DNA of 64,000 nucleotides from Candidatus Poribacteria bacterium (GCA_965205015.1 OZ242029.1:3200001-3264000), one strand, 5' to 3'. Counted from the stretch's first letter, positions 2,027 to 42,326 are shown. Notes: generated by a model not told the origin, from the sequence alone. Translations and numbers: made by a program.

Positions 2027-3019
2027 TTACTCGTCAAGCCAGCTCATCATGCTGCGCAGGTTTTTGCCGACTTTTTCGATTTCCAATTCCGCTTCCTGTC
2101 GACGGAGCGCACCGAGTACGGGTTGATTCGCTTCATTTTCCAAGACCCACTCTCGTGCGAAGACACCTTCCTGCACGTCCTTCAAAATTTGGCGCATTTT
2201 GTCTCGAATGCTGTCGTCAATGATCCGCGGACCCCGCGTGAGGTCCCCGAATTCAGCAGTATTGCTAATGTCATTTCGCATTTTGCTCAATCCGCCGGCG
2301 TAAATTAAATCGACAATCAACTTGAGTTCGTGGAGACATTCAAAGTAAGCCATCTCAGGTTGGTACCCCGCTTCAACAAGTGTGTCAAAAGCGGCTTTGA
2401 TGAGTGCCGCGGTCCCGCCACACAGGACGGCTTGTTCGCCAAAGAGATCCGTTTCGGTTTCCTCACGGAAGGTTGTTTCGATGACACCTGAGCGCGTGCC
2501 ACCGATGCCTCTGGCATAAGCGAGCGCGACATCGCGTGCAAGTCCTGTGGTATCTTGATGGATAGCAACAAGGCAAGGCACGCCACCACCGCCTTCAAAT
2601 ACCTCGCGGACAAGGGATCCGGGTCCCTTCGGTGCAATCATTGCGACATCAATGTCACTGGCAGGCACAATCTGTCCAAAATGGACGCTGAACCCGTGTG
2701 AGACGAGGAGCATGTTTCCCGGTTCCATGTTTGGGGCAATCTGATCGCGGTAGACGGCTGCATGCCGTTCGTCAGGGATGAGAACCTGGACGATGTCTGC
2801 CATTGCGGTGGCTTCTTCAACGGTTTTGACGGTTAAGCCTTCGGCTTCCGCTCGCGCTTTTGAACGGCTGCCTTCATATAATCCGACGACAACATTCGCG
2901 CCACTGTCCTTGAGGTTGAGTGACTGGGCACGTCCCTGTGCACCGTAACCCACAACAGCGACGGTGCGCTCTTTCAGTAAATCAAAATTGGCATCACTGT
3001 CGTAATAAATCGTTGCCAT
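2027..3019 (-). CDS. ilvC: Ketol-acid reductoisomerase
   Basis: [28 protein letters not shown] and [14 protein letters not shown] motifs. Confidence 0.98.
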
Positions 3020-3185
3020 TTTTCTAATTTTCCTTGCGGTTCGTTTCGGAAGGTTTGCGTATGAGTGCCCCTTCCGTCTATCTAGGGGAAATACCCTATC
3101 AAAAACCCTGCGTGTTTTTGCGAATCAACGCTGAATGCGCGTGTGGCATTCAGCGGGGTATTTCTGCGTATTGTTGCAGGCTACA
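3017..3185 (-). repeat. Dispersed repeat element ending in CGAACCGCAAGGAAAATTAGAAAAATG (SD + ATG of ilvC)
   Basis: Terminal motif recurs at the pgl, hppA, ADH and ggt starts; internal blocks shared with 22916-23106 and 33305-33463. Confidence 0.75.
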
Positions 3186-3228
3186 ATTTAGGGTTAATGG
3201 AGCGGGGCGCAGCCCAGAGGTACATCAA

Positions 3229-3729
3229 TTAAAATTCGGAGCCGCGGAGCATTGCTATTTTGCCGGTGCGTGCTAACTCAAGGATGCCGTAGGTATTGAA
3301 AATATCAATCGCTGCTCTCAATTTACCCTCATCCCCTGTAATTTCAAGGACAAGTGAGGTAGGCTTCATATCAATGACCCGTCCACGGAAGACTTCCGCG
3401 ACTTGTAGCACCTCAGTACGTTTTTGAGGATCGTCGGTGGCGACCTTGATAAGAACAAGTTCTCGCTCAACATGCGTCCCAGCCGTGGAAAGGTCTGTTA
3501 CCTCAATAACGTCAATAAGTCTGTTGAGATGATGATAGATCTGTTCAATAATTTGGGCATCGCCGTGCGTGACAAGCGTTATCTGCGAAATACTCCTGTC
3601 ATGCGTTTCGGCAACGTTAAGGCTATCGATATTAAAGCCGCGTCCGCTGAAGAGTCCCGCAACACGTGCGAGGACTCCAAATCGGTTTTCGACCAAAACG
3701 GAAAAAATGTGTCGTTCTTCAGGATTCAT
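3229..3729 (-). CDS. ilvN: Acetolactate synthase small (regulatory) subunit
   Basis: ACT domain VLVENRFGVLARVAGLFSGRGFNIDSL; ERELVLIKV; ELARTG; lies between ilvB and ilvC. Confidence 0.96.
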   Translation of the reverse strand: MNPEERHIFSVLVENRFGVLARVAGLFSGRGFNIDSLNVAETHDRSISQITLVTHGDAQIIEQIYHHLNRLIDVIEVTDLSTAGTHVERELVLIKVATDDPQKRTEVLQVAEVFRGRVIDMKPTSLVLEITGDEGKLRAAIDIFNTYGILELARTGKIAMLRGSEF

Positions 3730-3743
3730 TCTTTAATTTTACC

Positions 3744-5420
3744 TTAAGATAAGCCGCGGATAACATCTCCGAGTCCGGCACCCGCTGGTACCATCGGGAA
3801 CACATTTTCTTCTTCATCAACGATAAAGTCGATGACGACCGGACCGTCAGTAATCCCTTTTGCCTTTTGAAGTGCTGGCACAACATCTTCAGTGTGTTCA
3901 ACCCGTAAGCCTGTGGCACCGAATGCTTGTGCGAGTAAAGCGAAATCTGGGTTGTCGTGGTAATCGACAGCGGAATAGCGTTTACCGTGGAACAATTCCT
4001 GCCATTGGCGAACCATTCCCAAGTACATATTGTTGATGATGAAAATCTTAAGCGGCAGTTTCATCGTAACCGCTGGCACCAATTCTTGGATTGTCATGAT
4101 ATAGGAGCCATCGCCATTGATGTTGACGACGGTTTTGTCCGGACATCCAAGTTGCGCACCGATTGCGGCGGGGAGACTGAAGCCCATCGTCCCGAGACCA
4201 CCGGAGTTGAGCCATTGACGGGGTTCAGTGAATTTGAAGTATTGCGCCGCCCACATCTGATGCTGTCCGACATCCGCGACGACAATCGCATCGCTGTAAT
4301 GTTCATAAATCTGCTCAATGACGTATTGCGGCATTACCTTATCGGCTTTTTGCTCGTATTCAAATGGGTACTTCTGCTTCCATTCCTGAATCTGGTCGCG
4401 CCAGGGATCAATATCCGCTATGCCAACCTGTTTGTTGAGTTCAGTGAGGACGTTCTTCGCATCACCAACGATAGGAACATCTACCGGTACATTTTTCCCG
4501 ATACAGGAGGCGTCAATATCAATGTGGATTTTTTTGGCGTTCGGTGCAAATTTATTGAGATCACCGGTAACGCGGTCGTCGAACCTTGCCCCGATAGCAA
4601 TAACAAGGTCTGCGTCCGTAAAAGCGTAATTTGCGCAACAAGAGCCGTGCATTCCGGGCATCTCCATCGCCAAAGGATGCGTTTCGGGAAAAGCACCGAG
4701 CCCCATCAGTGTAACAGTAATCGGGATCTGGGTTTTGAGCGTGAATTGTCGTAGCTCTTCACTGGCATTGGCGAGGACGACGCCACCGCCGGCATACAGC
4801 ATTGGACGTTTCGCTTCCTTAATCAATGCCGCGGCCTTCCCGATTTGCACCGGATCCCCGTGAACTTGCGGTTTGTAACTGCGAATGTCAACCGTTTCTG
4901 GATATTGAAACAGTGCTTCGTGCAGCTGCGCGTCTTTGGCAATGTCAATAACAACAGGCCCGGGTTTCCCAGTCTTCGCGAGGTGAAACGCTTCGGCGAC
5001 GACATCTGCGACTTCGTCGCAATTTTTGATTAAATAACTATGCTTACAGATCGGACGCGTTACACCGATAACGTCACATTCTTGGAAAGCATCGCTGCCG
5101 ATATAATGGGTGAAGACCTGTCCAGTAATCGCGACCATCGGAATCGAATCCATGTAAGCGGTTGCGATACCGGTAACGAGGTTGGTTGCGCCGGGGCCGG
5201 AGGTTGCGAGCGCGACGCCGACATCGCCTGTGGCGCGTGCGTAGCCATCAGCGGCGTGGGAAGCCCCTTGTTCATGCCGCATCGGAATCAATTTGATTTC
5301 CGTCTCACTATACAGGGCATCGAAAATCGGCATCGCCGCGCCACCGTTCACACCAAAGATATATTCGACACCTTCCCGCTTGAGACTGTCAACAAGGATT
5401 TGCGCTCCTGAAAGTTCCAT
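3744..5420 (-). CDS. ilvB: Acetolactate synthase large subunit (start probably ATG at 5420, MELSGAQ)
   Basis: RHEQGASHAADGYAR, TSGPGATN, RFDDRVTG and the ThDP motif GDGS...NN. Confidence 0.97.
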   Translation of the reverse strand: MELSGAQILVDSLKREGVEYIFGVNGGAAMPIFDALYSETEIKLIPMRHEQGASHAADGYARATGDVGVALATSGPGATNLVTGIATAYMDSIPMVAITGQVFTHYIGSDAFQECDVIGVTRPICKHSYLIKNCDEVADVVAEAFHLAKTGKPGPVVIDIAKDAQLHEALFQYPETVDIRSYKPQVHGDPVQIGKAAALIKEAKRPMLYAGGGVVLANASEELRQFTLKTQIPITVTLMGLGAFPETHPLAMEMPGMHGSCCANYAFTDADLVIAIGARFDDRVTGDLNKFAPNAKKIHIDIDASCIGKNVPVDVPIVGDAKNVLTELNKQVGIADIDPWRDQIQEWKQKYPFEYEQKADKVMPQYVIEQIYEHYSDAIVVADVGQHQMWAAQYFKFTEPRQWLNSGGLGTMGFSLPAAIGAQLGCPDKTVVNINGDGSYIMTIQELVPAVTMKLPLKIFIINNMYLGMVRQWQELFHGKRYSAVDYHDNPDFALLAQAFGATGLRVEHTEDVVPALQKAKGITDGPVVIDFIVDEEENVFPMVPAGAGLGDVIRGLS

Positions 5421-5525
5421 GCCAATTTTCCTCATAAGCTGCAGGGGTGAGGGATATAGTTCCCTGTTCCCTGCGCGGAGTCGTTGAATTTTCGGTGCAG
5501 CTTGCAAACCGAAAACTTGCTCTAC

Positions 5526-5842
5526 AAAAGAAAAAGCCTCCTCGTTCCGAACATGGAGACGAGAAGGGCATTCACACTGACCTTACCGTGGTACCACTCC
5601 AATTCTCTTTCTCACTTTCATTCAAGATATTGGGTTTACAAAACCCACCTATAATGAGAGAGAGCACTCTTTGGGATGCGATAACGGGCATCACACCGAC
5701 CCATCCTACTGAGGTTTATAGACTGTTCAGATGCGCAGCTCCAGGGCGACCTTCAGTCGTGGGAACTTGTGGAGACCTTTCAGCCTATGAGTCTCCTTCT
5801 CTGGCAAGTCGGGACGACTTACTCCTCCCCTTCAACGCTTTT
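5526..5842 (-). promoter_or_regulatory. T-box riboswitch leader of the ilvBNC operon (probable Val, GUC specifier)
   Basis: Minus strand shows GA-motif ends, an AGUA box, AGAGA bulge, GCUGAAA loop, specifier loop GAA-G-GUC-G (GUC at 5750-5748), T-box AAUUGGAGUGGUACCACGG, and terminator GCCCUUCUCGU...ACGAGGAGGC-UUUUUCUUUU. Confidence 0.92.
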
Positions 5843-5928
5843 ATAGGTAATCTATTTAATTGTTAATTACGCACGCTGTTTTAATGAAGTTTCATAGGCG
5901 CGCTAAAAAAACTATATGTTATGTCTTA

Positions 5929-6116: not shown

Positions 6117-6722
6117 TTAGGCGTTTGCTATGTAGAGTTCATTGACCCGAGTCCAGTTGATGACGTTTGTCCACGCCTCAACGTAATCTGGACGGCGATT
6201 CTGGTAATTCAAATAATAGGCGTGTTCCCAGACATCGATACCCAGAAGCGGGGTATGTCCCTGCATAATTGGACTGTCCTGATTCGCCGTGGAGTAGATT
6301 TCCAAGCCACTGTCGCCGAGGACGAGCCATGCCCAACCAGAACCGAAGCGTGTGGTTGCGGCAGTAACAAATTGTTCTTTTGCTGCCTCCAGTGATCCGA
6401 AGGTAGAGGTGATCGCAGCTGCGATTTCTCCACCGGGTTCACCCCCATTAGGACCCATGATGGACCAAAAGAGGGAATGATTGGCGTGTCCGCCGCCGTT
6501 GTTGATGACAGCTTGGCGTTTGTCTTCCGGCACCTGATCGAGGTTACCGAGTAGGTCGTGAATATCCATATCGGCGACAGCACCGAGACCCTCTAAAGCG
6601 GTATTGAGGTTGGTGATATAGGCTTGATGGTGTTTGCCGTGATGGATTTCCATCGTTTGGACATCAATATAAGGTTCCAAAGCATCATGCGCGTAAGGCA
6701 ATGCTGGTAATGTATGTGCCAT
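6117..6722 (-). CDS. sodA: Superoxide dismutase, Mn/Fe family (Mn-type signatures)
   Basis: [28 protein letters not shown]. Confidence 0.95.
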
Positions 6723-13043: not shown

Positions 13044-14027
13044 CTATTGGAGTAATTTTAAGCACATTACCTCTAAAGCCAAGGTGGCATTCGTGTTTGT
13101 GTTCTCAAGGAGGGATTTGGTATCAAAAATGGTTTGGATGGCTTGTTGTATACGCAGGCGCGAATAGTAGGGAACAATGGCTCGGAGTTCCTCAAGGGAG
13201 TAAATGTGCGTTATCAATTCGCTGGGCGCGCCTTGTTGTAAAAAGAGGAGGTCCCGGTACCATGTAACTAACTCGCCCAAAGTTTCGGGGTTATTTTTAA
13301 AGTCTTCGGCAAGTCTGAAAGCGGCTAATCGATCCGTCTCTCTGAGGATTTCCGGTACTTTTTCGGTGAGGGGATCACCTTTTTCAATCTGCGTGAGTGC
13401 TTTTCCGATGGAGCCTCCCGATGCGATTGCGAGTGCTGTTGCCTGCTTTGGCACGACTGAAAACCTATCCACTAAGATATCTGCTAATTCTTGTGTTGAC
13501 ATCGGATGAAACTGGAGGATTTGGCATCGGGACCGTGTCGTCGGAAGCAGTGCTTGGGCGTTTGCGGTGATTAAAATTAAAACAGATGCCGCGGGGGGTT
13601 CTTCCAGCGTCTTGAGTAGGCAGTTTTCAGCCTCTGGATTCATCCGATCCGCGTCTGTCAAAATGTAGATTTTCCGACTCGCTTCGAGGGGTTCATAGAT
13701 AACCTGCCTTTGCAACTCTCGAATCTGTCCGATTTTCAGGAGACTCCCGTCGGGCCGAATGAACTGTAGGTCAGGATGGTTTCCCGAATCTATCTTTCGA
13801 CAGGCGAGGCATGTGCCGCACACCAGTCCCTTCTCAGTAACGGACGGAGACTCTGGAGGTTGCGATTCTTGTTGACAGAAGATTAATTGCGCGAAATAAC
13901 GGGCGACTGTCTCCTTTCCGACGCCCGCTGGTCCGACGAAAAGATATGCCCCAGCAATACGTCCCGATGCCACGGTTCGCTGGAGTTGCTCGACAATCTG
14001 CTGATGTCCAACGATTGGATTTTGCAT
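13044..14027 (-). CDS. holB: DNA polymerase III delta' subunit
   Basis: AYLFVGPAGVGK, CGTCLAC, HPDL, NCLLKTLEEPP, SRC; follows tmk. Confidence 0.93.
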   Translation of the reverse strand: MQNPIVGHQQIVEQLQRTVASGRIAGAYLFVGPAGVGKETVARYFAQLIFCQQESQPPESPSVTEKGLVCGTCLACRKIDSGNHPDLQFIRPDGSLLKIGQIRELQRQVIYEPLEASRKIYILTDADRMNPEAENCLLKTLEEPPAASVLILITANAQALLPTTRSRCQILQFHPMSTQELADILVDRFSVVPKQATALAIASGGSIGKALTQIEKGDPLTEKVPEILRETDRLAAFRLAEDFKNNPETLGELVTWYRDLLFLQQGAPSELITHIYSLEELRAIVPYYSRLRIQQAIQTIFDTKSLLENTNTNATLALEVMCLKLLQ

Positions 14028-14117: not shown

Positions 14118-14732
14118 TTACCATGAATAATCTTGATATTCGGCTAAGACTGCGGCGTGAATAACATCTGGAGACTGTGTAGCGTCTATCAGTTTGATAC
14201 GATGTGGATTCGCCTTTGCGACAGATAGGTATCCCTCGCGAACCTTGCGATGCGATTCTAACGACTCTCTGTCCAGACGGTCGCGATGGACCCCACCTTG
14301 CTGTTGGCGTGATAGTCCGATCTCTGGGGACAGGTCGAGGATAAAGGTAATGTCAGGGGTCAATCCACCCGTAGCAATGTGATTTAATTGGTGGATAAAC
14401 GCAAGGTCAATGCCGCCGCGATACCCTTGATAAGCCACAGTGGCATCAATAAACCTATCACAGATAACGGTTCGGCGTGCCTGTAACGCCGGACGTATCT
14501 GTTCGTTGACGTGTTGTGCGCGTGCAGCAGCTATCAGCAATAGCTCTGTCATCGGTGTTATACCCTCAGATGTTAGGAAGATGTGGCGAATCTGTTCGGA
14601 AATGTGTGTGCCGCCGGGTTCACGGGTGAGGACGGCATCCGGTCCGAGGGCAGCTGCCAAGCGTTGTGATTGCGTCGTCTTACCCGACCCTTCTATACCT
14701 TCAAATGTAATGAAAATTCCGCGTCGTGCCAT
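14118..14732 (-). CDS. tmk: Thymidylate kinase (start ATG at 14732)
   Basis: FITFEGIEGSGKTTQ, TREPGGT, CDRF..ATVAYQG. Confidence 0.96.
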   Translation of the reverse strand: MARRGIFITFEGIEGSGKTTQSQRLAAALGPDAVLTREPGGTHISEQIRHIFLTSEGITPMTELLLIAAARAQHVNEQIRPALQARRTVICDRFIDATVAYQGYRGGIDLAFIHQLNHIATGGLTPDITFILDLSPEIGLSRQQQGGVHRDRLDRESLESHRKVREGYLSVAKANPHRIKLIDATQSPDVIHAAVLAEYQDYSW

Positions 14733-14742
14733 ATTTCTCGTG

Positions 14743-15756
14743 TTAAAGAAAAAGAACCCACATTGGGCTTTCCCCGACTGTATAGTTACCAATCGGTGCC
14801 AACGCTCCACTTTCCCGATTGATGCGATAGGTAGCGAGTTTGCCTGACCCTTGACCCCCGACAAAGAGCAGGGTGCCGGTTGCGTCAATATTGAAAACGC
14901 GCGGCGTCGGTTCGGTTAACTGATGCCCGACAACACTGAGTTTCCCACTCTCTGCGTCGATTGCGAATGCTGCGATACTGTCATGTCCTCGATTGGAAAC
15001 ATAGAGAAATGTTCCCTGTGGATCGATGTGAATCTGAGCACAGGTATTATCCGCATCAAAATCCGCGGGAAGTGTAGACAAATCTTCCTGTAAATCCACC
15101 AAGATTCCTGGATGTTCTCCTTCCTCAAGGGTGTATGCGGAGACGCTTGATCCTTGTTCATTTGAGGCATAAAGGATCGGTTTGCTCGGATGAAAGCAGA
15201 CGTGTCGTGGTCCAATGGGAGCACCCGGGTTGAGGTTTCCTACCGGATTTTGTGTGAGTGTGCCTGTTCCCTCATCGAATTGAAACTGATAGATGGCGTT
15301 TCGAGGCACGGTATGCGGCACGAAGGCGAACCGATTTGAGGCATCCGTTTCGATGCAGTGTGCGTGTATATCCGTTTCAACAGTCTGGAGCGGCTCACCT
15401 TGCACGGTCTTATCGTCGCCGATGGTGTGTACCGTAACCTTGCCAGCACCGTAATAGGCGGACAGCAAGAAATTTCCGGTTTTGTCAGTCGCAATATAAC
15501 ACGTGTCCGCGTCCAGCTGTACTGTTCGCAAATGGGTGAGATGTTTTGTCTTTTCATCAATGCGGAAGCTTGCGATTTCTCGACTGGATCGGAGCCCAGC
15601 ATAGAGATAGTTACCACATAGTGAGCGTGCTAACGGACCGGGGGAACCGCTGACACCAATGTTTTCCTGAAATTCAATGTCGCCGCTGGAGACATCCAGT
15701 GTGTAAATGGCGATTCTGTTTTCTCCTGCGATGGAGAGATAAACGTGCGTTTGCAT
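14743..15756 (-). CDS. 6-phosphogluconolactonase-family lactonase (7-bladed propeller)
   Basis: HAHC, GPRH, LYVSNRGHDSIA, PRVF motifs. Confidence 0.88.
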   Translation of the reverse strand: MQTHVYLSIAGENRIAIYTLDVSSGDIEFQENIGVSGSPGPLARSLCGNYLYAGLRSSREIASFRIDEKTKHLTHLRTVQLDADTCYIATDKTGNFLLSAYYGAGKVTVHTIGDDKTVQGEPLQTVETDIHAHCIETDASNRFAFVPHTVPRNAIYQFQFDEGTGTLTQNPVGNLNPGAPIGPRHVCFHPSKPILYASNEQGSSVSAYTLEEGEHPGILVDLQEDLSTLPADFDADNTCAQIHIDPQGTFLYVSNRGHDSIAAFAIDAESGKLSVVGHQLTEPTPRVFNIDATGTLLFVGGQGSGKLATYRINRESGALAPIGNYTVGESPMWVLFL

Positions 15757-15846
15757 ATTTTAATTTTTCCTTGCGGTTCGGTGAGGTGGGTTTGAATCTT
15801 TGATGTTATTTCCCGTATACCCGCCCTCCATTACATTACGGGCTAA
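15754..15846 (-). repeat. Copy of the CGAACCGCAAGG...ATG element at the lactonase start
   Basis: CGAACCGCAAGGAAAAATTAAAATATG; CCATTACATTACGGGCT block also at 23033-23051. Confidence 0.7.
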
Positions 15847-15945
15847 TGGTTGCGTATTAAAGGAGGTCCAGACTTCCGTATCCGGTCGCGTCCGAATCAA
15901 GAACCTACGCGTAAGCATAGCGGAGCGCAGTCAAGGGCCCATAGA

Positions 15946-18104: not shown

Positions 18105-18171
18105 TTTTTTTAAGGTTGACCTCTCAATAATTTACTTTAGAAGAGTTCTGAAACTGCCTGCCAACTGAAGG

Positions 18172-18570
18172 CTACGCATCGAAATGGTAGACGATTTCGT
18201 CAAACCGGTCTGCTGCGAAGGTGAATAGAAAGACAAGATTCTCTGTGCTGGTACAACGAAGCGAATGTTTCGCATTAGCGGGTATAAAGACGGATGCCCC
18301 CGGACTAAGTGATGCTTCCTTATCATCTATTGTCACATGCCCGTAGCCGCTGATGACATAGTATGTCTCTTCGGGTTCGTGGTGGTGGAGCGGGAGTAGG
18401 GTCCCCGGAGCCATCTCTGCTATTCCATTGGTAAGTCGACCACTGGGTCCGCGTTCGCCCGATATGAGGATTTTCCAACGCACTGGACTCTTGGCAGCGA
18501 GGACTGGATCGTCCCAGGTTTCCCAATCAAGTTCTGCTTGGTTGAGGATAATGGGTTCTTGTTTATTCAT
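18172..18570 (-). CDS. Cupin protein, DddK/DddW-like (candidate DMSP lyase)
   Basis: VRWKILI..G.AE.APG..LPLHHH.PEETYYV.SG...FIPANAKH...F..DRF.E..Y.F. Confidence 0.65.
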   Translation of the reverse strand: MNKQEPIILNQAELDWETWDDPVLAAKSPVRWKILISGERGPSGRLTNGIAEMAPGTLLPLHHHEPEETYYVISGYGHVTIDDKEASLSPGASVFIPANAKHSLRCTSTENLVFLFTFAADRFDEIVYHFDA

Positions 18571-18646
18571 AAGGATATTCTAACAGATCTGGGGAGATTT
18601 TACAATATTTTTTGAGACGAAATGGACACGGCGCCAAGTCATATAA

Positions 18647-18680
18647 AAAGAAAAGGGGCAGGCATAAAAACCTGCCCTTA
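18647..18680 (-). terminator. Probable intrinsic terminator after ilvD
   Basis: GGGCAGG...CCTGCCC hairpin followed by a U-rich tract on the minus strand. Confidence 0.6.
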
Positions 18681-24490: not shown

Positions 24491-24499
24491 AACCGATAA

Positions 24500-25765: not shown

Positions 25766-26088
25766 AGTTTACCGATTGTAATTAAAATATGACATAGTAT
25801 CCTGCTTGTAGAAGTTAAATTTTAACACAGATTTGCCACAAATTCAAATTTTTCCTGATTTTTGTGTGAACCGCCATTTGTCAATTTGTCAAGAAGCATT
25901 TGACATTTCTGTTTCGATTCTTGCTATGTGTTTCATTTTGAATGCCTCCTCTTTTTTCTCTATTTTAATACCTTTTTGCGGTGTTTGTCAAGAAATAAGG
26001 TTGCTCTATTTCGGTTGTGTTATATTGGGGATTGTGCTAAACTGATATGCATCAGAATTTTGGAGAAAGGCATTTGTTAGTGTATATT

Positions 26089-28329: not shown

Positions 28330-28335
28330 TCATGA

Positions 28336-29097
28336 CTACTCAGGGGCTTTGTATTTCGGATCGTTAAAGTATTTGCTGATAAGTGGTTTGCCTTTGTGGA
28401 GAGTTGCAGCATGGGGTGCAGAGCTTACAAGCTGATTAATCAACCATTTGTTCTCCTTCTTTATCAGATAAATGTAGGTTTCCCCTGGGATCTTAGATAT
28501 TCCACATAAAGAATTGAACCCTTTCACACTCGCTTCAGGATACGGAACCTGGGCATTCTTAGGGCGGATATAAAATTCTGTCAGTGTAGGAGTCGGTCCC
28601 CACTGACAACCTGTACATGGGGCTTCCCAGCTATGCCAAAAATGGTGAATGGTAGCTTTAAGATTACTCTTGCTTAGGGACCGCCTATTGTGATTCTTAT
28701 TACCACAGGAAAAGTTAAATTCGTTCCCTCCGGGATGCACGTTAGTTAAGAGAGCATTCATCTCCCTTTGGTTATAGGCGTTATAAAATTCGGTATAAAC
28801 TTGTTGAATCGCTGCTGTCTCTGTTGCAAAGTCAATGGAATCCGTTGCGACCTCATCTTCTGGCACATCTGTCTCTATCCACGATTTATCTATGTAAGGG
28901 GCTGTTGAAAACAATACGTATTCGACGAATCGGGCAAGGTCTTTTTGTTCTTCTGGTGTCAGTTGTTTTATGCCGCCATCTGTTTCTGACTCGTCTGTCC
29001 CGCAACTGATAAGATTCAAGCTCGCAAAAATGCTTACGAATAGGAGTATTCGCCGGGCCTGTTTCCCGAACCCCCCTGCTATTTTTTTATGATTCAT
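28336..29097 (-). CDS. Lipoprotein, paralog of 29813-30511 (conserved N-terminus, divergent NTF2-like C-domain)
   Basis: Lipobox LISC; shared LTPEEQK..ARFVEYVLF...TAAIQQVY, LTEFYIR and YF.DPKYKAPE blocks. Confidence 0.7.
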   Translation of the reverse strand: MNHKKIAGGFGKQARRILLFVSIFASLNLISCGTDESETDGGIKQLTPEEQKDLARFVEYVLFSTAPYIDKSWIETDVPEDEVATDSIDFATETAAIQQVYTEFYNAYNQREMNALLTNVHPGGNEFNFSCGNKNHNRRSLSKSNLKATIHHFWHSWEAPCTGCQWGPTPTLTEFYIRPKNAQVPYPEASVKGFNSLCGISKIPGETYIYLIKKENKWLINQLVSSAPHAATLHKGKPLISKYFNDPKYKAPE

Positions 29098-29116
29098 TTT
29101 ACCTCCACAAAACGCG

Positions 29117-29803
29117 TTAGTAGGCAAGCCCGTTAAGCGTCAATAAAACAGTTACGACCTCATTTGTTAACTCAATTTCGTTTTTTTCACCGATGCTCGT
29201 TTTGGACGCATTGCCAAAACTCACGGTAAGATCAACAGAACAGTGGCGGAGAAACTCGTAACCGATTCCCCCCGAAACTGCTATACCTGTTGGTCGTGCG
29301 TTTTCCAATTCAATCGGCGGGAACCAAGTTGCTAAGGTTGCCAACCCGACAGAGCCGTGAATATAAAAGTTTGTTCTGTAGCGAGGATAGATTGTGATTC
29401 CCATGCCAGATGTTCCGTTGGCAATGACTGTGTCTTTATAGAGATTGCGCAAGGGTAACCATGTTACCCGGTTCGTATAGTAGATCAGAACCCGATCCGT
29501 CAACCCGTGCCCCACTCTGATGTCGGTTACAAAAGCCGATTCCGTCCCGCGTGTTTCTAATCGGGGACCTTCGTAGGCATCTCCCCAGTATTCGACAAGG
29601 GATTGCGTATAGCTCGCCATCCCTGTCCCAACCCCAATTCCGCAGATGAACCCCTCGCGTCTGCCTCTGTTACTGAATTCACTTTTTCCTGCACAAGAGC
29701 ATAAAACCAACACACTGGCAATTATACCATTGTAATGTACCCATGATAATCTAAATTTCACAAATATTCCCTCCTCACAGTAATTGGTGTGCTTCTGTTT
29801 CAA
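29117..29803 (-). CDS. Small outer-membrane beta-barrel protein, paralog of the C-terminal domain of 30534-32087
   Basis: Alternating hydrophobic strands, GIGYEF, C-terminal aromatic (LTLNGLAY). Confidence 0.65.
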   Translation of the reverse strand: MKQKHTNYCEEGIFVKFRLSWVHYNGIIASVLVLCSCAGKSEFSNRGRREGFICGIGVGTGMASYTQSLVEYWGDAYEGPRLETRGTESAFVTDIRVGHGLTDRVLIYYTNRVTWLPLRNLYKDTVIANGTSGMGITIYPRYRTNFYIHGSVGLATLATWFPPIELENARPTGIAVSGGIGYEFLRHCSVDLTVSFGNASKTSIGEKNEIELTNEVVTVLLTLNGLAY

Positions 29804-29812
29804 ATTTCATGG

Positions 29813-30511
29813 TTACTCAGGGGCTTTGTATTTCGGATCGTCGAAGTATTGCCGAGCATTGTGTTTACTCCTGACGAGTTCATTCATGAACCATCTATCC
29901 CCTCGTTTTGTCAGGTAAATGAGGACGTTGTCAGCCGTTTTCGCGCTCGCTTCAGGCCAGGGATATTGGACGTTCCCGCTGCGGATATAAAATTCTGTCA
30001 GCAGAGAAGTTGCACTCAATGGACGCAACGGGCCATCTTTTTCTTGCGCACCCCCGCACTGATTCCAGGGTTTTCTCATCTCATATGTGCTTAATACCAG
30101 AATAGTTCCCTCTGCGCAGGGAAAGACGAATCTGATGCCACTGGGAGGGTAAAAGTGCGATGCGGCAGTGTCAAAATCTCGTGCTTCCCACGCGTTGTAA
30201 ACTTGGGTATAGACCTGTTGAATCGCTGCAGTTTCCGTTTCAAAGTCGATAAACTTTTTCGCCACCTCGTCCTCTGGCACATCTGTTTCTACCCATGATT
30301 TGTCTACGTAAGGAGAACTTGGAAAAAGCACGTATTCAACAAATCGTGCGATATGTTTTTGTTCTTCTGGTGTCAGTTGGTTTGTTCCGCTATCCGTTTC
30401 TGTCTCGTCTGTGCCGCAACCGATAAGATTCAAACCCGCAAAGCCGACGGCTGTCAGGAACATTATCAGGATCACGTTCACAAAAAAGACTGATATTTTC
30501 TGCTTATTCAT
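29813..30511 (-). CDS. Lipoprotein, paralog of 28336-29097
   Basis: Lipobox LIGC; same conserved blocks as its paralog. Confidence 0.7.
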   Translation of the reverse strand: MNKQKISVFFVNVILIMFLTAVGFAGLNLIGCGTDETETDSGTNQLTPEEQKHIARFVEYVLFPSSPYVDKSWVETDVPEDEVAKKFIDFETETAAIQQVYTQVYNAWEARDFDTAASHFYPPSGIRFVFPCAEGTILVLSTYEMRKPWNQCGGAQEKDGPLRPLSATSLLTEFYIRSGNVQYPWPEASAKTADNVLIYLTKRGDRWFMNELVRSKHNARQYFDDPKYKAPE

Positions 30512-30533
30512 GATTTGACCTCAACAGAATGGG

Positions 30534-32087
30534 TTAGTAGGCAAGTCCGTTAAGCGTCAGTAAAACAGTTACAACTTCATTTGTGAGTTCAATGTAATTC
30601 CTATCATAAATTTGTGTTCTGGACGCATTGCCAAAACTCACCGTCAGGTCAACAGAAGTATGTGGGAAAAACTCATAACCGATGCCTGCTGAAACCGCTA
30701 TACCCGTTGGGCGTGCGTTTTCCAATTCAATCGGCGGGAACCAAGTTGCTAAAGCCGTCAATCCGACAGAACCTTCGATATAAAAACTTGATTTGTAGTA
30801 AGGATAGATTGTCACTCCCAAACCGGCTGTTCCATTGGCGATGACTGTGTCCCGATAGAGATTGCGTAAGGGTATCCACGAGATTCGACTTGTATAGTAA
30901 AACAGAATCTGATCTGTCCAGCCGTGTCCTATTCTGATATTCGTTATAAAAGCCGATTCCCTCCCTCGTGCCTCTAACTGTGGTCCTTCATACGCGTCGC
31001 CCCAATATTCAACAAGCGATTGGGTATAACTTGCCATCCCCGTCCCGACCCCGAGGCCCCAGATAAAACCTTCACGGTTCGCTCTGGGCCTGAATGCCTT
31101 TGCTTTCGTGCTATACACGATTGTTGAGAGATTCCACAAGCGGGTTTCTCTTCCACTCGCGCTTGCCAGGGTTTTTCCATCCGGACTAAAGGCGACACTC
31201 CTGATGTTATCCGTATGCCCTATCAGTGCGTACTTGTGCCCACCTGTCTTCACATCCCATAAGAGGATGGTTTTGTCCCAAGCCCCACTTGCCAGGGTTT
31301 TCCCATCCGGACTGAACGCGATGCTATTAATAGTAGCCGTGTGTCCCTTGAGTATTCGCTTAAGCTTACCCGTCTTCACATCCCATAAACGGATTTCTGT
31401 TCCACGTCCACCTGCCAAGGTTTTTCCATCCGGACTGAAGGATATGTTATTGGTATTACCGGAATACCCTTTGAGTATCCGCTTGAGTTTACCCGTCTTC
31501 ACATCCCATAAACGCACTGTGGCATCCCAACTTCCACTGGCTAATGTCTTGCCATTCGGACTGAATGAGACGCTTAAGACTTCAGCTGTATGCCCTATGA
31601 GCTCGTGCGTGTATGTTCCTGTCTGCACATTCCACAAGCGAATGGTTTTGTCTCTGCTGCTACTTGCTAATGTTTTCCCATCGGGACTGAACGCTACGCT
31701 CCAGACAAACGTTGTATGTCCTTTGAATGTTTGCTTATGTGCTCCCGTCTCCACATCCCACAAGCGGGTTTCTCGCCCACTCACGCCTGCCAGCGTCTTT
31801 CCATCGGGACTAAACGCTACATTACTGACCCGATCCATATATCTTTTTAGCAGCGGTTCCTCCTCCGCGCTACCGATAGCGTATATCCAAATACCGCTGC
31901 CACTCGCAAGTGCCAGGAGCTTACCGTCTCGGGAATATTGTATAACATTGATACTCACTTTCTCGAATTCGGATTCGGCACTCTCAGGCAAATGGAATCG
32001 TGTGTATTCTTGAGCGAAACTCGTTGATAGACAGACAGTTGAAAATATGAGAAAGATGAAAAAAATCGAAAACATCTTCGTTTTCAT
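30534..32087 (-). CDS. Secreted WD40-repeat protein fused to a C-terminal outer-membrane beta-barrel
   Basis: Signal peptide; about 7 GH...VAFSPDGKTLAS...LWD repeats; C-terminal ~180 aa closely matches 29117-29803. Confidence 0.8.
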   Translation of the reverse strand: MKTKMFSIFFIFLIFSTVCLSTSFAQEYTRFHLPESAESEFEKVSINVIQYSRDGKLLALASGSGIWIYAIGSAEEEPLLKRYMDRVSNVAFSPDGKTLAGVSGRETRLWDVETGAHKQTFKGHTTFVWSVAFSPDGKTLASSSRDKTIRLWNVQTGTYTHELIGHTAEVLSVSFSPNGKTLASGSWDATVRLWDVKTGKLKRILKGYSGNTNNISFSPDGKTLAGGRGTEIRLWDVKTGKLKRILKGHTATINSIAFSPDGKTLASGAWDKTILLWDVKTGGHKYALIGHTDNIRSVAFSPDGKTLASASGRETRLWNLSTIVYSTKAKAFRPRANREGFIWGLGVGTGMASYTQSLVEYWGDAYEGPQLEARGRESAFITNIRIGHGWTDQILFYYTSRISWIPLRNLYRDTVIANGTAGLGVTIYPYYKSSFYIEGSVGLTALATWFPPIELENARPTGIAVSAGIGYEFFPHTSVDLTVSFGNASRTQIYDRNYIELTNEVVTVLLTLNGLAY

Positions 32088-32137
32088 AATTTCCTCTTTT
32101 TCTAATGTATAAGTCATTCCAATTCTGACAAGTTTTT

Positions 32138-33307
32138 TTAGAATGCCGCCTCAAACAAAGCCACCATATCCGTCTCTGTACACACCCTCGGGTTGAACTT
32201 GTGGCAATGATCAAGCATTGCATCCGCCCCGAGTTTCGGAATTTTTTCTCGGTCCAAACCGGCATCCCCGAGTCCTGTGGGCATATTCAACTCCGTGTTG
32301 TATGCCCTGATTTTGTCAATGGCAGCATGCCCGGCTTCGTCAATATCCATATTACTTGTGTCTATACCTAAGGCACACGCGATTTCCGCGTATTTTTCAT
32401 TCGCATGCGAAAAGTTAAACGCCATGACAGGAGGGAGGAGAATGGCGTTGGCGACGCCGTGGGGGATAGGGGCATCTGTAGAGAGTTGATGTGCCAGCGA
32501 ATGGACTGCGCCGAGCCCCTTCTGGAACGAAAATGCTGCCATACAGGATCCGAGAAGCATTTCACCGCGTGCGGTTACATCTTCACCCTTGTGATAGACC
32601 TGTTGGATGTTCGCGCTCAACATTCTGAGTGCCTGTAATGCGACACCCTCGGCAATAGGGTGGTATCTCGTGGCTACATACGCCTCGATACCGTGTGTAA
32701 TGGCATCCATACCTGTCGCGGCAGTAAGCGCAGGTGGCATGCCAAGGGTTATGCCCGGATCAAGGAGCGCGATGTTCGACATGTTGAAGGGTGTAACGAT
32801 TGCACGCTTCCGCCATCGATCGGTTGTTTGTAGCGACGTATCCGTAATAATGGATCCTTGTGACACCTCACTGCCTGTGCCAGCAGTCGTCGGTACGCAT
32901 ATGAGCGGTGGCATATCGCCTCGGATACGCTCGACACCTCCAACATCAGCGTAATAGGGTTCGAGAGGGGGTTCATGGGTCGTCAAGAGACGAATGGCTT
33001 TGGCGGCATCCATCACACTTCCGCCGCCGACAGCGATGACGACATCGCACGCCTCAGCTTTGTAGACTTCTACGCCCTTTGTAACACTGATGTCTGTCGG
33101 ATTCGGTTCGATATCCGAATACATAGCGTACGGCAAGCCGCTTGCCTCCAGAGCATCTATCGCTTTTGCGAGGATACCGGCGTTGATGACACCCGCGTCG
33201 CTCACTAAGAACGGTTTTTTGCCATCAAACGCCTTGACGTGTTTGCCTAAGTTTTGGATGGCACCGTCACCGAATTCAATTCGCGGCGGTAAAAAATAGT
33301 TTAGCAT
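32138..33307 (-). CDS. Iron-containing alcohol dehydrogenase
   Basis: GGGSVMDAAK, PTTAGTGSE, DAITHGIE, HSLAH...HG. Confidence 0.92.
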   Translation of the reverse strand: MLNYFLPPRIEFGDGAIQNLGKHVKAFDGKKPFLVSDAGVINAGILAKAIDALEASGLPYAMYSDIEPNPTDISVTKGVEVYKAEACDVVIAVGGGSVMDAAKAIRLLTTHEPPLEPYYADVGGVERIRGDMPPLICVPTTAGTGSEVSQGSIITDTSLQTTDRWRKRAIVTPFNMSNIALLDPGITLGMPPALTAATGMDAITHGIEAYVATRYHPIAEGVALQALRMLSANIQQVYHKGEDVTARGEMLLGSCMAAFSFQKGLGAVHSLAHQLSTDAPIPHGVANAILLPPVMAFNFSHANEKYAEIACALGIDTSNMDIDEAGHAAIDKIRAYNTELNMPTGLGDAGLDREKIPKLGADAMLDHCHKFNPRVCTETDMVALFEAAF

Positions 33308-33463
33308 TTTTTGATTATACCTTGCGGAGGAACGACGGTCCTTGAGACTCTTGAGTGCGTCTCTTAAATCCGCCTGCGTGTTTTTGCAATGTAATACAAG
33401 GAATGGATTTAGTCTATTCCCAGACTAAATCCGGTATTTCTGCGTATTGTTGCAGGCTAACGG
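33305..33463 (-). repeat. Copy of the CCGCAAGG...ATG element at the ADH start
   Basis: CCGCAAGGTATAATCAAAAAATG; CTGCGTGTTTTTGC and GGTATTTCTGCGTATTGTTGCAGGCTA blocks shared with 3017-3185. Confidence 0.72.
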
Positions 33464-33522
33464 TTCTGGTTTTATGAATTCAAAGATCTATTATAGAAAC
33501 CTAAAGGAAATTTTGATAAAGC

Positions 33523-33550
33523 GAACGCGAGGCTTTGATGCCTCGCGTTC
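33523..33550 (-). terminator. Hairpin, possible terminator
   Basis: GAACGCGAGGC-TTTGAT-GCCTCGCGTTC perfect stem. Confidence 0.55.
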
Positions 33551-33572
33551 TAATTCATAATGGCGTTTGAAA

Positions 33573-34295
33573 CTACTTCACGGATTTAAGATGTGCCCAC
33601 GTTGTTGCGAGTTTGCTCTTCGCATCAACCGGTAACGAGGGACCATCAGGTCCGTAAACCACAACATCGTCATACTTCGCAACGGTGCTCCACGTTGCTA
33701 AGCCGATGCGTCCGACACCGTTTTCGGTATCGTCGTCGACGGTTGCGACTTCTTCATCGTTGAGGATGACGGTGTAACTATCGGGTGTATTGACAATCTT
33801 GATGTTATACCAATCCTTCTCATCGATGGTATGAGCACTATTGGCACCGGCTTTGCCACCCCATGATTCGACCTGTGAGCGTGAGTTTCCCCATCCGCCG
33901 AGGTTCCACCAGTATTCCAACGAAGGCTTAAGTTTCTCCATACGTGGCGGATGATCCTCAAGTGCCTGTCCGCGGGCTTGCATCAGACCTTGGCATCGGA
34001 ACATAATCAGGAACCCTTCGGCACCACTGGTTTTACTCCCGCGGACCTCAAAGGTGTAATCGTTCCAATCGTCCTCCCAGAATTCATCAGCGACGACACT
34101 CATACAGTTAGGGGAATTTTGGAGCTGATGGTATTCATCGTCCTTGAGTTCCCATTCCCCGAAGAGGGCGACCCATTTGTTTTCGGATTCTTTCGGGTCA
34201 TCGAAATTATCCTCAAAATAGGTTTGCGACATCGCAGGTGCAGCAATGCCGAGTGTGATTATACAGATAGCGATGAACAGGTTACGGCTGTTCAT
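33573..34295 (-). CDS. Secreted concanavalin-like/DUF1080-type protein with C-terminal KLATTW tail
   Basis: Signal peptide; FEDNFDD...GRIGL...YDDVVV; ends PVDAKSKLATTWAHLKSVK. Confidence 0.65.
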   Translation of the reverse strand: MNSRNLFIAICIITLGIAAPAMSQTYFEDNFDDPKESENKWVALFGEWELKDDEYHQLQNSPNCMSVVADEFWEDDWNDYTFEVRGSKTSGAEGFLIMFRCQGLMQARGQALEDHPPRMEKLKPSLEYWWNLGGWGNSRSQVESWGGKAGANSAHTIDEKDWYNIKIVNTPDSYTVILNDEEVATVDDDTENGVGRIGLATWSTVAKYDDVVVYGPDGPSLPVDAKSKLATTWAHLKSVK

Positions 34296-39621: not shown

Positions 39622-39682
39622 CTATCTTTCCCGAGCCGTGGACGCTGTTCGGTCACTCACAGTTCAACGAAAGAGGTTGTTG

Positions 39683-40531
39683 TTAGGATTTGATCTCTGC
39701 CCACCTAACTGCTAATTTATGTTTTGGTTCTACAGAAAATGCGGTGCTTATGAGTTTTATATTATCTATTGCCCACCACCAATCATTCTGCGCGTCGACG
39801 ACACCGAAACTAATCGTCATTTCAGCGGCACCGGCGGGGTTGTCGATAGGGATTTCTAACGTTTCGTTTATCTGCTCCCCATCATTCATCTTTTCCTCTT
39901 TGAGTTTGAGGGTAGGAATCGTAACAAGGGTATGTGCGCCTGCGTCAATACCGACGCTCTTGAAGAATAGGATTTGTTCTTCTTTATCCGCGTCGAAGCT
40001 TACTATGATCTCACCATTTTGAGTATCTTCAGGACGCCAACTCGAATCCAATGTTAAGACGAGCGACTTTGCTGCCGCGCCTTTGATTTTAATGGGTGGG
40101 GTGATTAAGTGTCCATTCCAACGACTCTGACCGTCAGGGTCGCCATTTCCTTCCCAATCGTCCCACTCATCAGGATCAGAAACGGCACCTTTACCTACGC
40201 CCTTACCGTCATTGTGTACCCCTGTGAACTCACTACGCCGTTGGTCTTCCGCCGTGCGTGTCCACCACTCCAGGTCGACAATCGCCCACGTTCTCCACTC
40301 AGGCATTCCGAGGTCTTTAGGATTTTCGTTTGTGATTTCCCAACCCTCAGGTGGTGTGCCTGACCAAACGTCTTTATCCTTAATCTGTTCCATGATACTT
40401 GCTTCGAGTGTCACGCCTTCAAAATCTTCTTCAAAAAGGACAACCTCACGACTCCAAGTTTGGAGTGCTACAAGACAAAAGGTTAGCGTTAGAATCGCGT
40501 GTGTAACGATCCTTATAGGGGTGGTACTCAT
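39683..40531 (-). CDS. Secreted acidic beta-sandwich protein with C-terminal KLAVRW tail
   Basis: Signal peptide; LFEEDFE...WWWAIDNI; ends SVEPKHKLAVRWAEIKS. Confidence 0.6.
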   Translation of the reverse strand: MSTTPIRIVTHAILTLTFCLVALQTWSREVVLFEEDFEGVTLEASIMEQIKDKDVWSGTPPEGWEITNENPKDLGMPEWRTWAIVDLEWWTRTAEDQRRSEFTGVHNDGKGVGKGAVSDPDEWDDWEGNGDPDGQSRWNGHLITPPIKIKGAAAKSLVLTLDSSWRPEDTQNGEIIVSFDADKEEQILFFKSVGIDAGAHTLVTIPTLKLKEEKMNDGEQINETLEIPIDNPAGAAEMTISFGVVDAQNDWWWAIDNIKLISTAFSVEPKHKLAVRWAEIKS

Positions 40532-40665
40532 AATCAGCCTCCATAGGTTCTAACCCAATAATGATATTGTGGCAGAATATTTGGGTGAACTGCCGTGAAT
40601 ATCGTTAACACGCAAACATCTTTGTTTTATAGTTCAAACCCTGCTTTATAGAAAAAATAGTTCCT

Positions 40666-42303
40666 CTAAAAAGTAACGGCATACCCATCGGTTCTCGGAT
40701 CGGAACCTCCGATGAGCGCACCTGATTCAGGATGTACCATGATAGCCTGAGCACTCCCCGGACCCCCCCAATCACCGACGAGTTGAAGTTCATGTCCTTT
40801 TTCCGCTAAACCTGTTTGTGTGTCGGGAGAGAAGCGGGTTTCTAACTGGAGGTCATTGGAACAGGTGTGCGGGATAGTGGATTCCATGGGATTCTGCAAG
40901 CTCCGCCAACGCGGTGCAGAAACGGCTTCCTGCGGTGTCATCCCGAAATCAATCATGTGGGTAACGAGTTGTAGATTCGTTTGGACCTGTGTATCTGCGC
41001 CAGGGGTGCCACAGGCGATGAACGGTTGACCGTCCTTTGTAACAATGACGGGGTTCATGGTGTGGCGGACGCGTTTGCCCGGCATCAAGCAGTTGGGATG
41101 TCCCTCTTCCAAATGCCAATAGGTCATGCGATTGTTCAAGAGGATACCGGTGTCACCTGCTACGAGACTCGAGCCGAATCCTGACTGAATACTCTGCAGG
41201 ATGCAAACGAGGTTTCCCGCTTGATCCGCCGTGCAGAAACAGGTTGTATCTTCGTGCGCCTCTGGGCCACCCGCTGGCACATCAAAAGCCGCCTTATCTA
41301 AGTTGATACGTTCTGCTTGTTCAGCGGCGTAAGATTTGGATAGCATCCCTTCTATGGGAACATCCACCCACTCTGGATCCGCCATATATTTTTCCCGATC
41401 TGCGAAGGCGAGTTTCTTCGCCTCAACCATTAGATGCACACTTTCAGCGGTATTGCACCCTAAAGTTTGCAAATCGAATAACTCGACCATGTTCAATTCT
41501 TGGAGTAAGATATGCCCGCTTGAGTTAGGGGGCATTTCATAAACCTCGTATCCACGGTAGTTGACATGTATCGGATCAGCCCAATGTGCGTGGTAGTTCG
41601 CGAGATCCTCGGCTGTCAGAAGTCCGTCGTGGGCACGGCTGAATTCACCGATGGTTTTCGCAATTTCACCTTTGTAGAACACGTCTCTTCCGTGTTTGGC
41701 AATCTTTCGGAGCGTGGCACCAAGATTCGGATTTGATAGAAACTGACCTGAGGCGATGGGGGCACCATCGGTTGTAAAGATAGCGCGACTGTCTGGTTCG
41801 GCGGCGAAGCGGGCATTCTCGCCCTTAAGACCGTTAGCGAGTTTATGACTCACGGGAGCCCCTTCTTCGCAGAGCGAAATTGCTGGTGCGAAAACGTCTT
41901 CTAATTTGAGTGATCCGTAGCGTTCGTGTGCGAGGAGCCATGCGTCGACGATCCCCGGCACCGAAACACTCCGTATGCCTTTCATCGGGATCCCGCCGTC
42001 TTTGAGGTAGGTTTCTCGGGTAGCGGCACGCGGGGCGGGTCCGGTTCCATTCACCGCCTCGACCTGTCCGGTGTCCGCCCAATAAATGAGAATAAAACCG
42101 TCGCCTCCAAGTCCAGAACCAGCGGGTTCAACCATACCGAGGGCTACAGCGGTTGAGATAGCAGCATCGACGGCGTTGCCACCCGCCATCATTGTCTGAA
42201 TGCCGGCTTGTGAGGCAAGGACGTGTCCAGATGTAACCATGCCGTTTCTTCCCATTACAGAGGGACGAAACGCTGAAGCAGTAATACCGTGTGGAGATTG
42301 CAT
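40666..42303 (-). CDS. ggt: Gamma-glutamyltransferase family protein
   Basis: GGNAVDAA, SGLGGDGF, catalytic Thr in EDTT, GILLNNR, GTPG, SDPR.DG. Confidence 0.92.
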   Translation of the reverse strand: MQSPHGITASAFRPSVMGRNGMVTSGHVLASQAGIQTMMAGGNAVDAAISTAVALGMVEPAGSGLGGDGFILIYWADTGQVEAVNGTGPAPRAATRETYLKDGGIPMKGIRSVSVPGIVDAWLLAHERYGSLKLEDVFAPAISLCEEGAPVSHKLANGLKGENARFAAEPDSRAIFTTDGAPIASGQFLSNPNLGATLRKIAKHGRDVFYKGEIAKTIGEFSRAHDGLLTAEDLANYHAHWADPIHVNYRGYEVYEMPPNSSGHILLQELNMVELFDLQTLGCNTAESVHLMVEAKKLAFADREKYMADPEWVDVPIEGMLSKSYAAEQAERINLDKAAFDVPAGGPEAHEDTTCFCTADQAGNLVCILQSIQSGFGSSLVAGDTGILLNNRMTYWHLEEGHPNCLMPGKRVRHTMNPVIVTKDGQPFIACGTPGADTQVQTNLQLVTHMIDFGMTPQEAVSAPRWRSLQNPMESTIPHTCSNDLQLETRFSPDTQTGLAEKGHELQLVGDWGGPGSAQAIMVHPESGALIGGSDPRTDGYAVTF

Positions 42304-42326
42304 TTTTTAATTTTCCTTGCGGTTCG
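42301..42326 (-). repeat. CGAACCGCAAGGAAAATTAAAAAATG motif at the ggt start
   Basis: Near-identical to the motifs at the ilvC, pgl and hppA starts. Confidence 0.8.

Follow-up and report, generated by a model that had tools for sequence, protein, structure and literature searches.

A dispersed modular repeat of Poribacteria that probably serves as a portable ribosome-binding site

The REP2 repeats of Neisseria and a plasmid IR of Borrelia have been described as dispersed intergenic repeats with two stem-loops toward the 5' side and no terminal inverted repeats, which carry a ribosome-binding site immediately 5' of open reading frames (ORFs); REP2, with about 26 copies, is described as holding a promoter and its own ATG, and fourteen genes as being co-regulated through it (Delihas 2011, PMC3184786). 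MIRUs have been described as short, seemingly mobile repeats at start codons, which lie in gene orientation and in tandem in operons and preserve the expression of their targets by a small ORF coupled to the gene with a -4 overlap (PMC12548453). Here we analyze a repeat found in a 64,000-nucleotide stretch of DNA from a Candidatus Poribacteria bacterium (GCA_965205015.1, OZ242029.1:3200001-3264000; this whole stretch is called the window below), in which a ~26-nt motif containing AAGGA precedes the start codons of several genes. We consider it likely that this motif forms the 3' end of a modular, lineage-specific DNA repeat dispersed in Poribacteria genomes, which has been co-opted as a portable ribosome-binding site. 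As far as the cited accounts go, REP2 and the Borrelia IR appear to be the functionally nearest known elements. Like REP2, the Poribacteria repeat lies directly 5' of the ORFs of diverse genes with a ribosome-binding site, and it has two internal stem-loops and no terminal inverted repeats; unlike REP2 as described there, no sigma-70-like promoter was seen in its units, the ATG belongs to the gene, expanded genomes have 72-297 copies each, tandem arrays occur commonly and the carrier genes are not related to one another; the likeness is one of described features. With the MIRUs, within the scope of their account, it shares the position at start codons, the tandem arrays and the gene orientation, but its unit would bring a Shine-Dalgarno (SD) sequence and not a coupled ORF; because the periods of the arrays are mostly not multiples of three (85, 116, 121, 137 nt), no ORF reads through them.

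Two further groups of repeats resemble the element in their build. The REP elements (repetitive extragenic palindromes) and bacterial interspersed mosaic elements (BIMEs) of enterobacteria and pseudomonads, which go with RAYT transposases, are short imperfect palindromes with a (G)TAG-like tag, mosaic modules, a high copy number and lineage-specific expansions; REPs lie mostly 3' of genes or in the spacers of convergent gene pairs, in many cases as inverted pairs, and are not known to carry a ribosome-binding site. The Poribacteria repeat has a short imperfect palindrome, the mosaic build, the high copy number and the lineage-specific expansion in common with them, and its 5' tag, invariant at AG alone, recalls the (G)TAG, but it carries a ribosome-binding site, sits before genes, and no cognate RAYT was found for it. 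The BOX elements of Streptococcus pneumoniae are modular (A - n x B - C), have variable inner modules and are transcribed with neighbouring genes; the Poribacteria repeat is modular as well, but differs in sequence and host, and we know of no report that BOX replaces SD sites systematically. Full-text searches of the literature on Poribacteria repeats and SD sequences gave no paper that treats this family in its title or in the opening of its abstract. The repeat represents a new family within an already known type of element.

We searched the window for the 26-mer at ≤3 mismatches, with 100 shuffles as a control, and found matches on the minus strand at 3018-3043, 22917-22942 and 42301-42326, compared with 0/100 shuffles containing a match. 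The copy at the lactonase gene (15757-15780), which has a 1-nt insertion (an extra A), was identified by direct reading, and all six copies of the window are on the minus strand. At ilvC, the lactonase gene, hppA and ggt, the copy stands 10-12 nt 5' of the ATG (start codons at 3019, 15756, 22918 and 42303, respectively), a variant, CCTCCGCAAGGTATAATCAAAAA, runs directly into the ATG of an iron-dependent alcohol dehydrogenase (Fe-ADH) gene (33308-33330), and the copy TGAACCACAAGGAAAATTAA at 23082-23106 provides the final seven codons of the folC ORF (23087-24490) together with its TAA stop. The preliminary description of the window had placed the motif at these five starts and at the end of folC, and both the matches and the direct reading bear this out. 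The carrier genes match the Pfam families KARI (ilvC), Lactonase, H_PPase, G_glu_transpept, Fe-ADH and, for folC, a Mur-ligase/FolC-like protein. A covariance model built from the copies of other genomes found all six copies of the window, at 91.6, 55.9, 41.6, 33.4, 30.6 and 15.7 bits, the weakest with E = 0.36. Identity among the copies extends over 23-90 nt, and two subfamilies occur in the window, A (ilvC, lactonase, hppA, ggt) and B (Fe-ADH). Since the majority of the other genes in the window have AGGAG/GGAGG leaders without these flanks, the motif is not a general SD consensus. The mosaic blocks that had been reported around several copies are also real; they are the reverse complements of upstream modules of the element, because the plus strand had been read, and correspond to a hairpin (AGCCCGTAATGWAATGG, hairpin 1 below), a T-rich block (GTTTTTGATAGGGTATTTC) and a nested second repeat.

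A complete unit measures ~85-90 nt, or up to ~130 nt with extra inserted modules, and consists in order of [R]TAG, hairpin 1, an CGGATATACGG-type linker, a second hairpin, AAACCCACCTGAC, the core CGAACCGCAAGG and an A/T-rich tail. Genome-wide counts of such copies were made in relatives of the window genome, among 61 sampled Poribacteria genomes. The proposed check of the distance and strand of the motif relative to start codons, carried out in these relatives, revealed a non-random placement: ATG, GTG or TTG opening at least 90 codons occurs 10-14 nt after AAGG in 82/128 strict copies versus 63/2360 random positions, and the spacing from AAGG to the start is exactly 12 nt in 63 of those 82 copies. 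Because the strict pattern included part of the tail, we repeated the count with other anchors, and anchors independent of the tail gave a start and an ORF in 25/60 copies (18/30 for those anchored by hairpin 1 and 7/30 for those anchored by the linker), with about 26 of 31 linker-anchored copies on the strand of the downstream gene. Matches to Pfam families were obtained for 63/82 downstream ORFs, and many of these alignments begin at profile position 1-4, which confirms the start codons. The functions of the carrier genes are unrelated and include amino-acid biosynthesis, oxidoreductases, sulfatases, transporters, sigma factors, HisRS and NuoK. As for the other copies, some are internal to tandem arrays, some stand 20-50 nt ahead of a start that has retained its own SD, and some are antisense. 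We also noticed genes that apparently start with ATT, ATA or ATC directly 3' of the tail of an element (L117:300-387 and downstream, L050, L194, L199, L236), one of which has a CoaBC-like N-terminus (I-I-L-G-V-T-G-G-I-A) and another the GxGxxG N-terminus of an FAD-oxidoreductase. These are possible near-cognate start codons driven by a strong ribosome-binding site.

Comparison of orthologous loci, which the preliminary description had proposed as a search for empty sites, uncovered both filled and empty states at ggt, hppA, ilvC, the lactonase gene and the ADH gene. The core precedes ggt in 9/30 orthologous loci, at lengths from core-only to a full unit, while the other 21/30 loci have GGAGG-type leaders, 11 of them with the same upstream gene and then a ~14-nt spacer. 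At ilvC, the sampled genomes G017 and G057 have orthologous copies, whereas G055, G029 and G043 are empty and have a native GAGAGGAA/AGAAGGAA SD; in the ilvN-ilvC spacer of G055 (L178), TAACTGA-type heptad repeats occupy the place of the element of the window. The lactonase site holds subfamily A in the window, another subfamily in G057, only the tail AGGAGAAGGAAAATTAAAAAAATG in G017, and CTCCGCAGAGGTAATTATAAAATATG in G055. At hppA, G043, G029 and G055 are empty, the repeat-poor relatives having a native AGAGAGG or other leaders, and G057 keeps the native AGAGAGG SD 3' of a degenerate copy whose left junction is that of the copy in the window, which indicates that the native SD was lost after the insertion in the window lineage. 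The core copy in folC is shared with G017 and lacking in G057 and G043. From the terminator to the ATG of the Fe-ADH gene, the window has ~190 nt versus a leader of 15-17 nt in G057 and G017. Over the syntenic region as a whole, the covariance model (named R1) gave 6 copies for the window and 8 for 60 kb of G057, against 0 for 100 kb of G055.

Two further sites are filled in relatives of the window genome. Site A (window ~6856) has a clean insertion of 125-130 nt in G057 (L225 ~13270-13370) and G017 (C64 ~20480-20630), located 5' of a sequence that, read by eye, looks like a sigma-70-like promoter before ORF 6117-6722; there the element is flanked by a 9-nt direct repeat of the CCCTTCAGA/CCTTTGAGA type, which is single-copy in G055 and the window, and this is the only clear candidate target duplication that we found. 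At site B of G057 (L225 ~6230-6400, orthologous to window 14724-14742), the element has taken the place of the three initial codons of the following gene (tmk, judged by eye), and the ORF restarts in frame at an ATG within the element, so that the core is translated as ...FLRKEKLK. Tandem arrays have periods of 85, 108, 111, 116, 121 and 137 nt. The array in L167 (G001:C1:4576800-4578800) has eleven 111-nt units (~1.2 kb) between co-directional permease-like ORFs (by eye pstC/pstA), and its units differ by paired changes (TATGG...CCAT versus TACGG...CCGC); only its last unit abuts an ATG, the inner units having ATATATTC in that position. Because the inner units of tandem arrays have no ATG, the ATG is not part of the repeat. 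The earlier idea that the element supplies both the SD and the start codon is supported for the first by the replacement of the SD at orthologous sites, and is not supported for the second, the ATG being the gene's own. In summary, copies of the expanding family were inserted into intergenic spacers, duplicated in tandem, nested and partially deleted.

The family is lineage-specific and is expanded in one Poribacteria clade. A scan with the core pattern, using one genome per species, found at least 118 loci, and the 80 matches listed were all from Poribacteria metagenome-assembled genomes (MAGs) or from two other MAGs. The complete genome of a relative, G001 (6.1 Mb), contains 285 matches to the 14-mer AACCGCAAGGAAAA at ≤1 mismatch, versus 7 for the reversed control. 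Core matches number 72-297 in 10/61 genomes and are at the control level in the other 51/61. R1, for which 72 candidates were scored per genome so that its counts saturate at 72, saturates (71-72/72) in the same 10 genomes and finds four copies in one other genome, one copy each in five and none in 45. The low-copy matches inspected, from five of the six genomes, are complete units positioned 5' of start codons; the family therefore predates its expansion in the one clade. G057, G001 and the repeat-poor G055 share the canonical 16S 3' end GGATCACCTCCTTTCT. We observed, in addition, a copy ~100 nt 5' of the start of a lipoprotein-like gene at the same locus in the distant, repeat-poor genomes G040, G008 and G043 (L217, L218, L222, L105), which could be an old or founder copy.

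Similarity among the aligned copies runs ~65 nt 5' of the core. Hairpin 1 has a stem of 4 bp and then one of 2 bp, with a conserved G.A/N.G/A.G internal loop between them and a GNA loop after the second, and is paired at 97% in 45 non-redundant copies, with two-sided changes at four pairs (in 5, 14, 20 and 12 sequences). Its covariation score was reached by 0/500 shuffles, shifting the partner strand lowered the pairing to 25-48%, and a mutual-information scan placed the same pairs at the top. The non-Watson-Crick oppositions between its stems are conserved as well (G.A in 41/49, A.G in 49/49, and also N.G). Among about 250 listed matches the closing pair was T..G in 5 and C..A in 3, without asymmetry, and because these counts are symmetric, RNA and DNA, or one strand and the other, are not distinguishable for hairpin 1. 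The second helix, CGG-NN-AGG...CCU-NA-CCG, is 78% paired and covaries weakly, and ~20 nt at the apex of its hairpin are nearly free to vary. A possible third helix, GCGG/CCGC, hardly varies on either strand, and its 5'-strand variants GCGA, ACGA and GCTGG are uncompensated. The GNRA mini-hairpin CC-GCAA-GG of the preliminary description is not supported, since its stem has only 2 bp and the flanking bases lack consistent compensating changes. The invariant box of the core is CCGCAAGG: copies retrieved by hairpin 1 alone belong to several subfamilies with differing middles and have this box exactly in 28/30 cases, and it is exact in 54/60 copies retrieved via other anchors, across subfamilies with different flanks. 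The 5' tag is invariant only at AG; about half of the copies have a T in front of it, and the G before the T varies. At ilvC (3108-3175) and Fe-ADH (33385-33450), both on the minus strand of the window, a second repeat is nested in the loop of hairpin 1; it has the ends AACAATACGCAGAAATACC and GCAAAAACAC and a variable central palindrome, and the T-rich block GTTTTTGATAGGGTATTTC corresponds to part of it in reverse complement. The covariance-model and Rfam check that had been proposed was also run: the model recovers the six copies, and no Rfam family matches the element, the window at the gathering score giving a T-box leader only and 15 loci at E ≤ 1 giving a chance miRNA as the sole match.

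The six copies of the window (all on the minus strand) illustrate this modular build. The lactonase copy (15757-15846; ATG 15756-15754; 91.6 bits, E = 1.4e-20) is the canonical full-length unit, in which hairpin 1 (~15822-15845) is followed by the linker GGGTATACGGG (15811-15821), the variable hairpin (15781-15810), the core (15769-15780) and the tail (15757-15768). The ilvC copy (3020-3184; ATG 3019-3017; 41.6 bits) is composite and contains the core CGAACCGCAAGG at 3032-3043, the tail at 3020-3031, the second hairpin at ~3044-3085, the T-rich block at 3089-3107, the nested second repeat at ~3108-3175 within hairpin 1, and GTAG at 3181-3184. A T-rich insert distinguishes the hppA copy (22919-23050; ATG 22918-22916; 55.9 bits; core 22931-22942, hairpin 1 ~23026-23050), and the core-only copy that closes the folC-like gene (TAA 23087-23089) is TGAACCACAAGGAAAATTAAAAAAA at 23082-23106 (30.6 bits). 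The subfamily-B composite 5' of the Fe-ADH gene (33308-33459; ATG 33307-33305) is a weak match (15.7 bits, E = 0.36), in which the core CCTCCGCAAGGTATAATCAAAAA occupies 33308-33330 and hairpin 1 is split by the nested repeat, with a 12-bp palindrome, at 33405-33432; the insert as a whole, with its non-repeat left part, extends to ~33515. The shortened ggt copy (42304-42335; ATG 42303-42301; 33.4 bits) consists of AAATCTGAA followed by the core and tail CGAACCGCAAGGAAAATTAAAAA, and starts immediately 3' of the TGA (42336-42338) that ends the oxidoreductase gene upstream. A sigma-70 consensus scan of 14600-33700 found no site inside the units 15757-15846, 22919-23050 and 23082-23106, although the Poribacteria promoter consensus may differ, and gave one sigma-70-like site, 33519-33490, in the non-repeat part of the ADH insert. 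Elsewhere in the window, the T-box leader (RF00230, 99.9 bits) lies at 5552-5844 on the minus strand, 5' of ORF 3744-5507, which resembles an acetolactate synthase large subunit, judged by its place in the ilv cluster.

Constraint on the core was measured on seven ggt-linked copies chosen by protein orthology (7 genomes, 21 pairs). Per-site differences came to 0.087 for the 12-nt core, 0.25 for the 12 nt preceding it, 0.38 for the hairpin interior and 0.355 for third codon positions, so that the core at this locus changes ~4 times slower than third codon positions; at ggt it is kept in place by selection or by conversion from other copies. For the predicted unpaired probability from -20 to +3, the 82 element leaders gave 0.67 and the 9 ggt loci with the element 0.68, versus 0.475 for 20 native ggt leaders. 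As for transcripts, one contig of an RNA library, from a relative with ~90% identity, extends out of hppA and 64 nt into the element, and in the RNA-library repeat bins many contigs pile up with diverging loose ends, for which DNA carry-over is possible. Extended pairing with the anti-SD was considered as the cause of the CCGC 5' of the SD and is ruled out by the canonical 16S 3' end of G057, G001 and G055.

That the motif is simply the ordinary SD consensus of the organism, or a chance resemblance, can be set aside with near certainty. Its AAGGA does pair with the canonical 16S tail, but most other genes of the window have AGGAG/GGAGG without the flanks, the identity extends over 23-90 nt with matches in 0/100 shuffles, G001 has 285 matches against 7 for the reversed control, and relatives with the same 16S tail lack the repeat; these counts refute it. 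The preliminary description had left two other possibilities, a mobile repeat and a 5'-UTR (untranslated region) RNA module coordinating these genes, and the mobile repeat is supported by the clade-restricted amplification, the filled and empty sites at which GGAGG/AGAGAGG SD sequences are replaced, the tandem arrays and the enrichment 10-14 nt before starts. The alternative would take hairpin 1 and CCGCAAGG to be a conserved cis-regulatory RNA bound by a clade-specific protein or small RNA in a post-transcriptional regulon, with the spread being secondary. The non-Watson-Crick positions of hairpin 1 (G.A 41/49, A.G 49/49), the exactness of the box in 54/60 copies from other anchors despite differing flanks, the ~4 times stronger conservation of the ggt core relative to third codon positions and a CCGC for which the anti-SD does not account would all fit such an RNA. 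However, the carrier genes are functionally unrelated, their Pfam families lacking a common theme, the same genes have ordinary leaders in close relatives, the core-only copies at ggt and folC have no hairpins, some copies are antisense, lie 5' of a promoter or are translated at coding ends, and no Rfam family fits, and we regard a coordinating module as unlikely.

How copies of a dispersed repeat would move can be framed more specifically. A REP-type element that a RAYT/Y1 (HUH) transposase would mobilize by acting on hairpin DNA in single-stranded form is possible, if rather doubtful: a short imperfect palindrome follows [G/A]TAG in most copies, terminal inverted repeats are absent, the mosaic with its nested inserts is BIME-like and Y1_Tnp genes are present in the genomes. 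On the other hand, Y1 genes occur in 54/61 genomes without a link to the 10 expanded ones, parts of the element flank 0/18 Y1 loci, the copies are mostly single and co-oriented with genes instead of forming inverted REPIN pairs, GTAG is not strict (only AG is invariant), and the closing pair (T..G 5, C..A 3 in roughly 250 listed matches) does not assign a strand. Most copies stand alone or in direct tandem, and few close inverted pairs were seen in G057. One gene of G057 that stands between two copies in divergent orientation was considered as a transposase and is an ABC-transporter ATPase. Less probable still is a MITE (miniature inverted-repeat transposable element) moved by a DDE transposase with a 9-bp target duplication, which we hold to be quite improbable; the CCCTTCAGA/CCTTTGAGA-type 9-mers around the element at site A in G017 and G057, single-copy in G055 and the window, are what such a transposition would leave, but there are no terminal inverted repeats, the flanks match at ≥7/9 in 13/70 full copies versus 6.6 expected, which is weak, and many copies are partial, core-only or in tandem arrays.

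The reading we prefer, a dispersed repeat co-opted as a portable ribosome-binding site, has several points to answer. The ATG is abutted exactly in 42-64% of copies, far above random insertion, so that targeting, or later deletion together with selection, is needed. No mobilizing gene was found, the Y1 transposase genes (PF01797) being present in 54/61 genomes regardless of the repeat and 0 of the 18 Y1 loci examined having parts of the element within 1.5-2 kb; reading by eye at site A showed no terminal inverted repeats; and the target duplication is confined to one site, with the excess of flank matches among the 70 full copies (13 versus 6.6 expected at ≥7/9) being weak. The constraint estimate covers the single locus ggt, the RNA evidence comes from contigs of relatives of ~90% identity, from which transcript ends are not readable, the canonical 16S 3' end does not account for the invariant CCGC 5' of the SD, and the use in ribosome binding is read from position and conservation. 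With these points in mind, new copies of the repeat may arise by in-trans mobilization of a single-stranded hairpin element, as with REP elements, and slippage and gene conversion among copies may add to the spread. Copies would survive mainly in the orientation of the flanking gene. Where the tail abuts a start codon, AAGGA would act as the SD and the unstructured A/U tail as the spacer, replacing the native SD; the upstream hairpins probably shield the site from the upstream context and may stabilize the mRNA, and the core would come under purifying selection once in place.

The repeat has practical consequences for work on these genomes. For gene calling, it marks true start codons in Poribacteria MAGs and flags possible ATT/ATA starts; for assembly, it explains contig breaks and strain-variable spacers; and for engineering, it offers a naturally tested 'insulated RBS' (ribosome-binding site) design, in which hairpins are followed by an unstructured A/U-rich SD region. 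A bolder interpretation, which we rate as unlikely, is that the CCGCAAGG box and the internal loop of hairpin 1 are sites for a clade-specific trans factor, either an RNA-binding regulator or a mobilizing nuclease, with the consequence of targeted insertion at translation starts and/or several per cent of the genes in one post-transcriptional circuit; if true, the element would be a natural, self-spreading 'standard RBS part'. The share of genes affected would be a few per cent, given the 285 core copies counted and ~5,000 genes, a number assumed from the 6.1-Mb genome. For the biology of this uncultivated sponge-symbiont lineage, the finding means that a selfish-looking repeat can overwrite translation-initiation signals.

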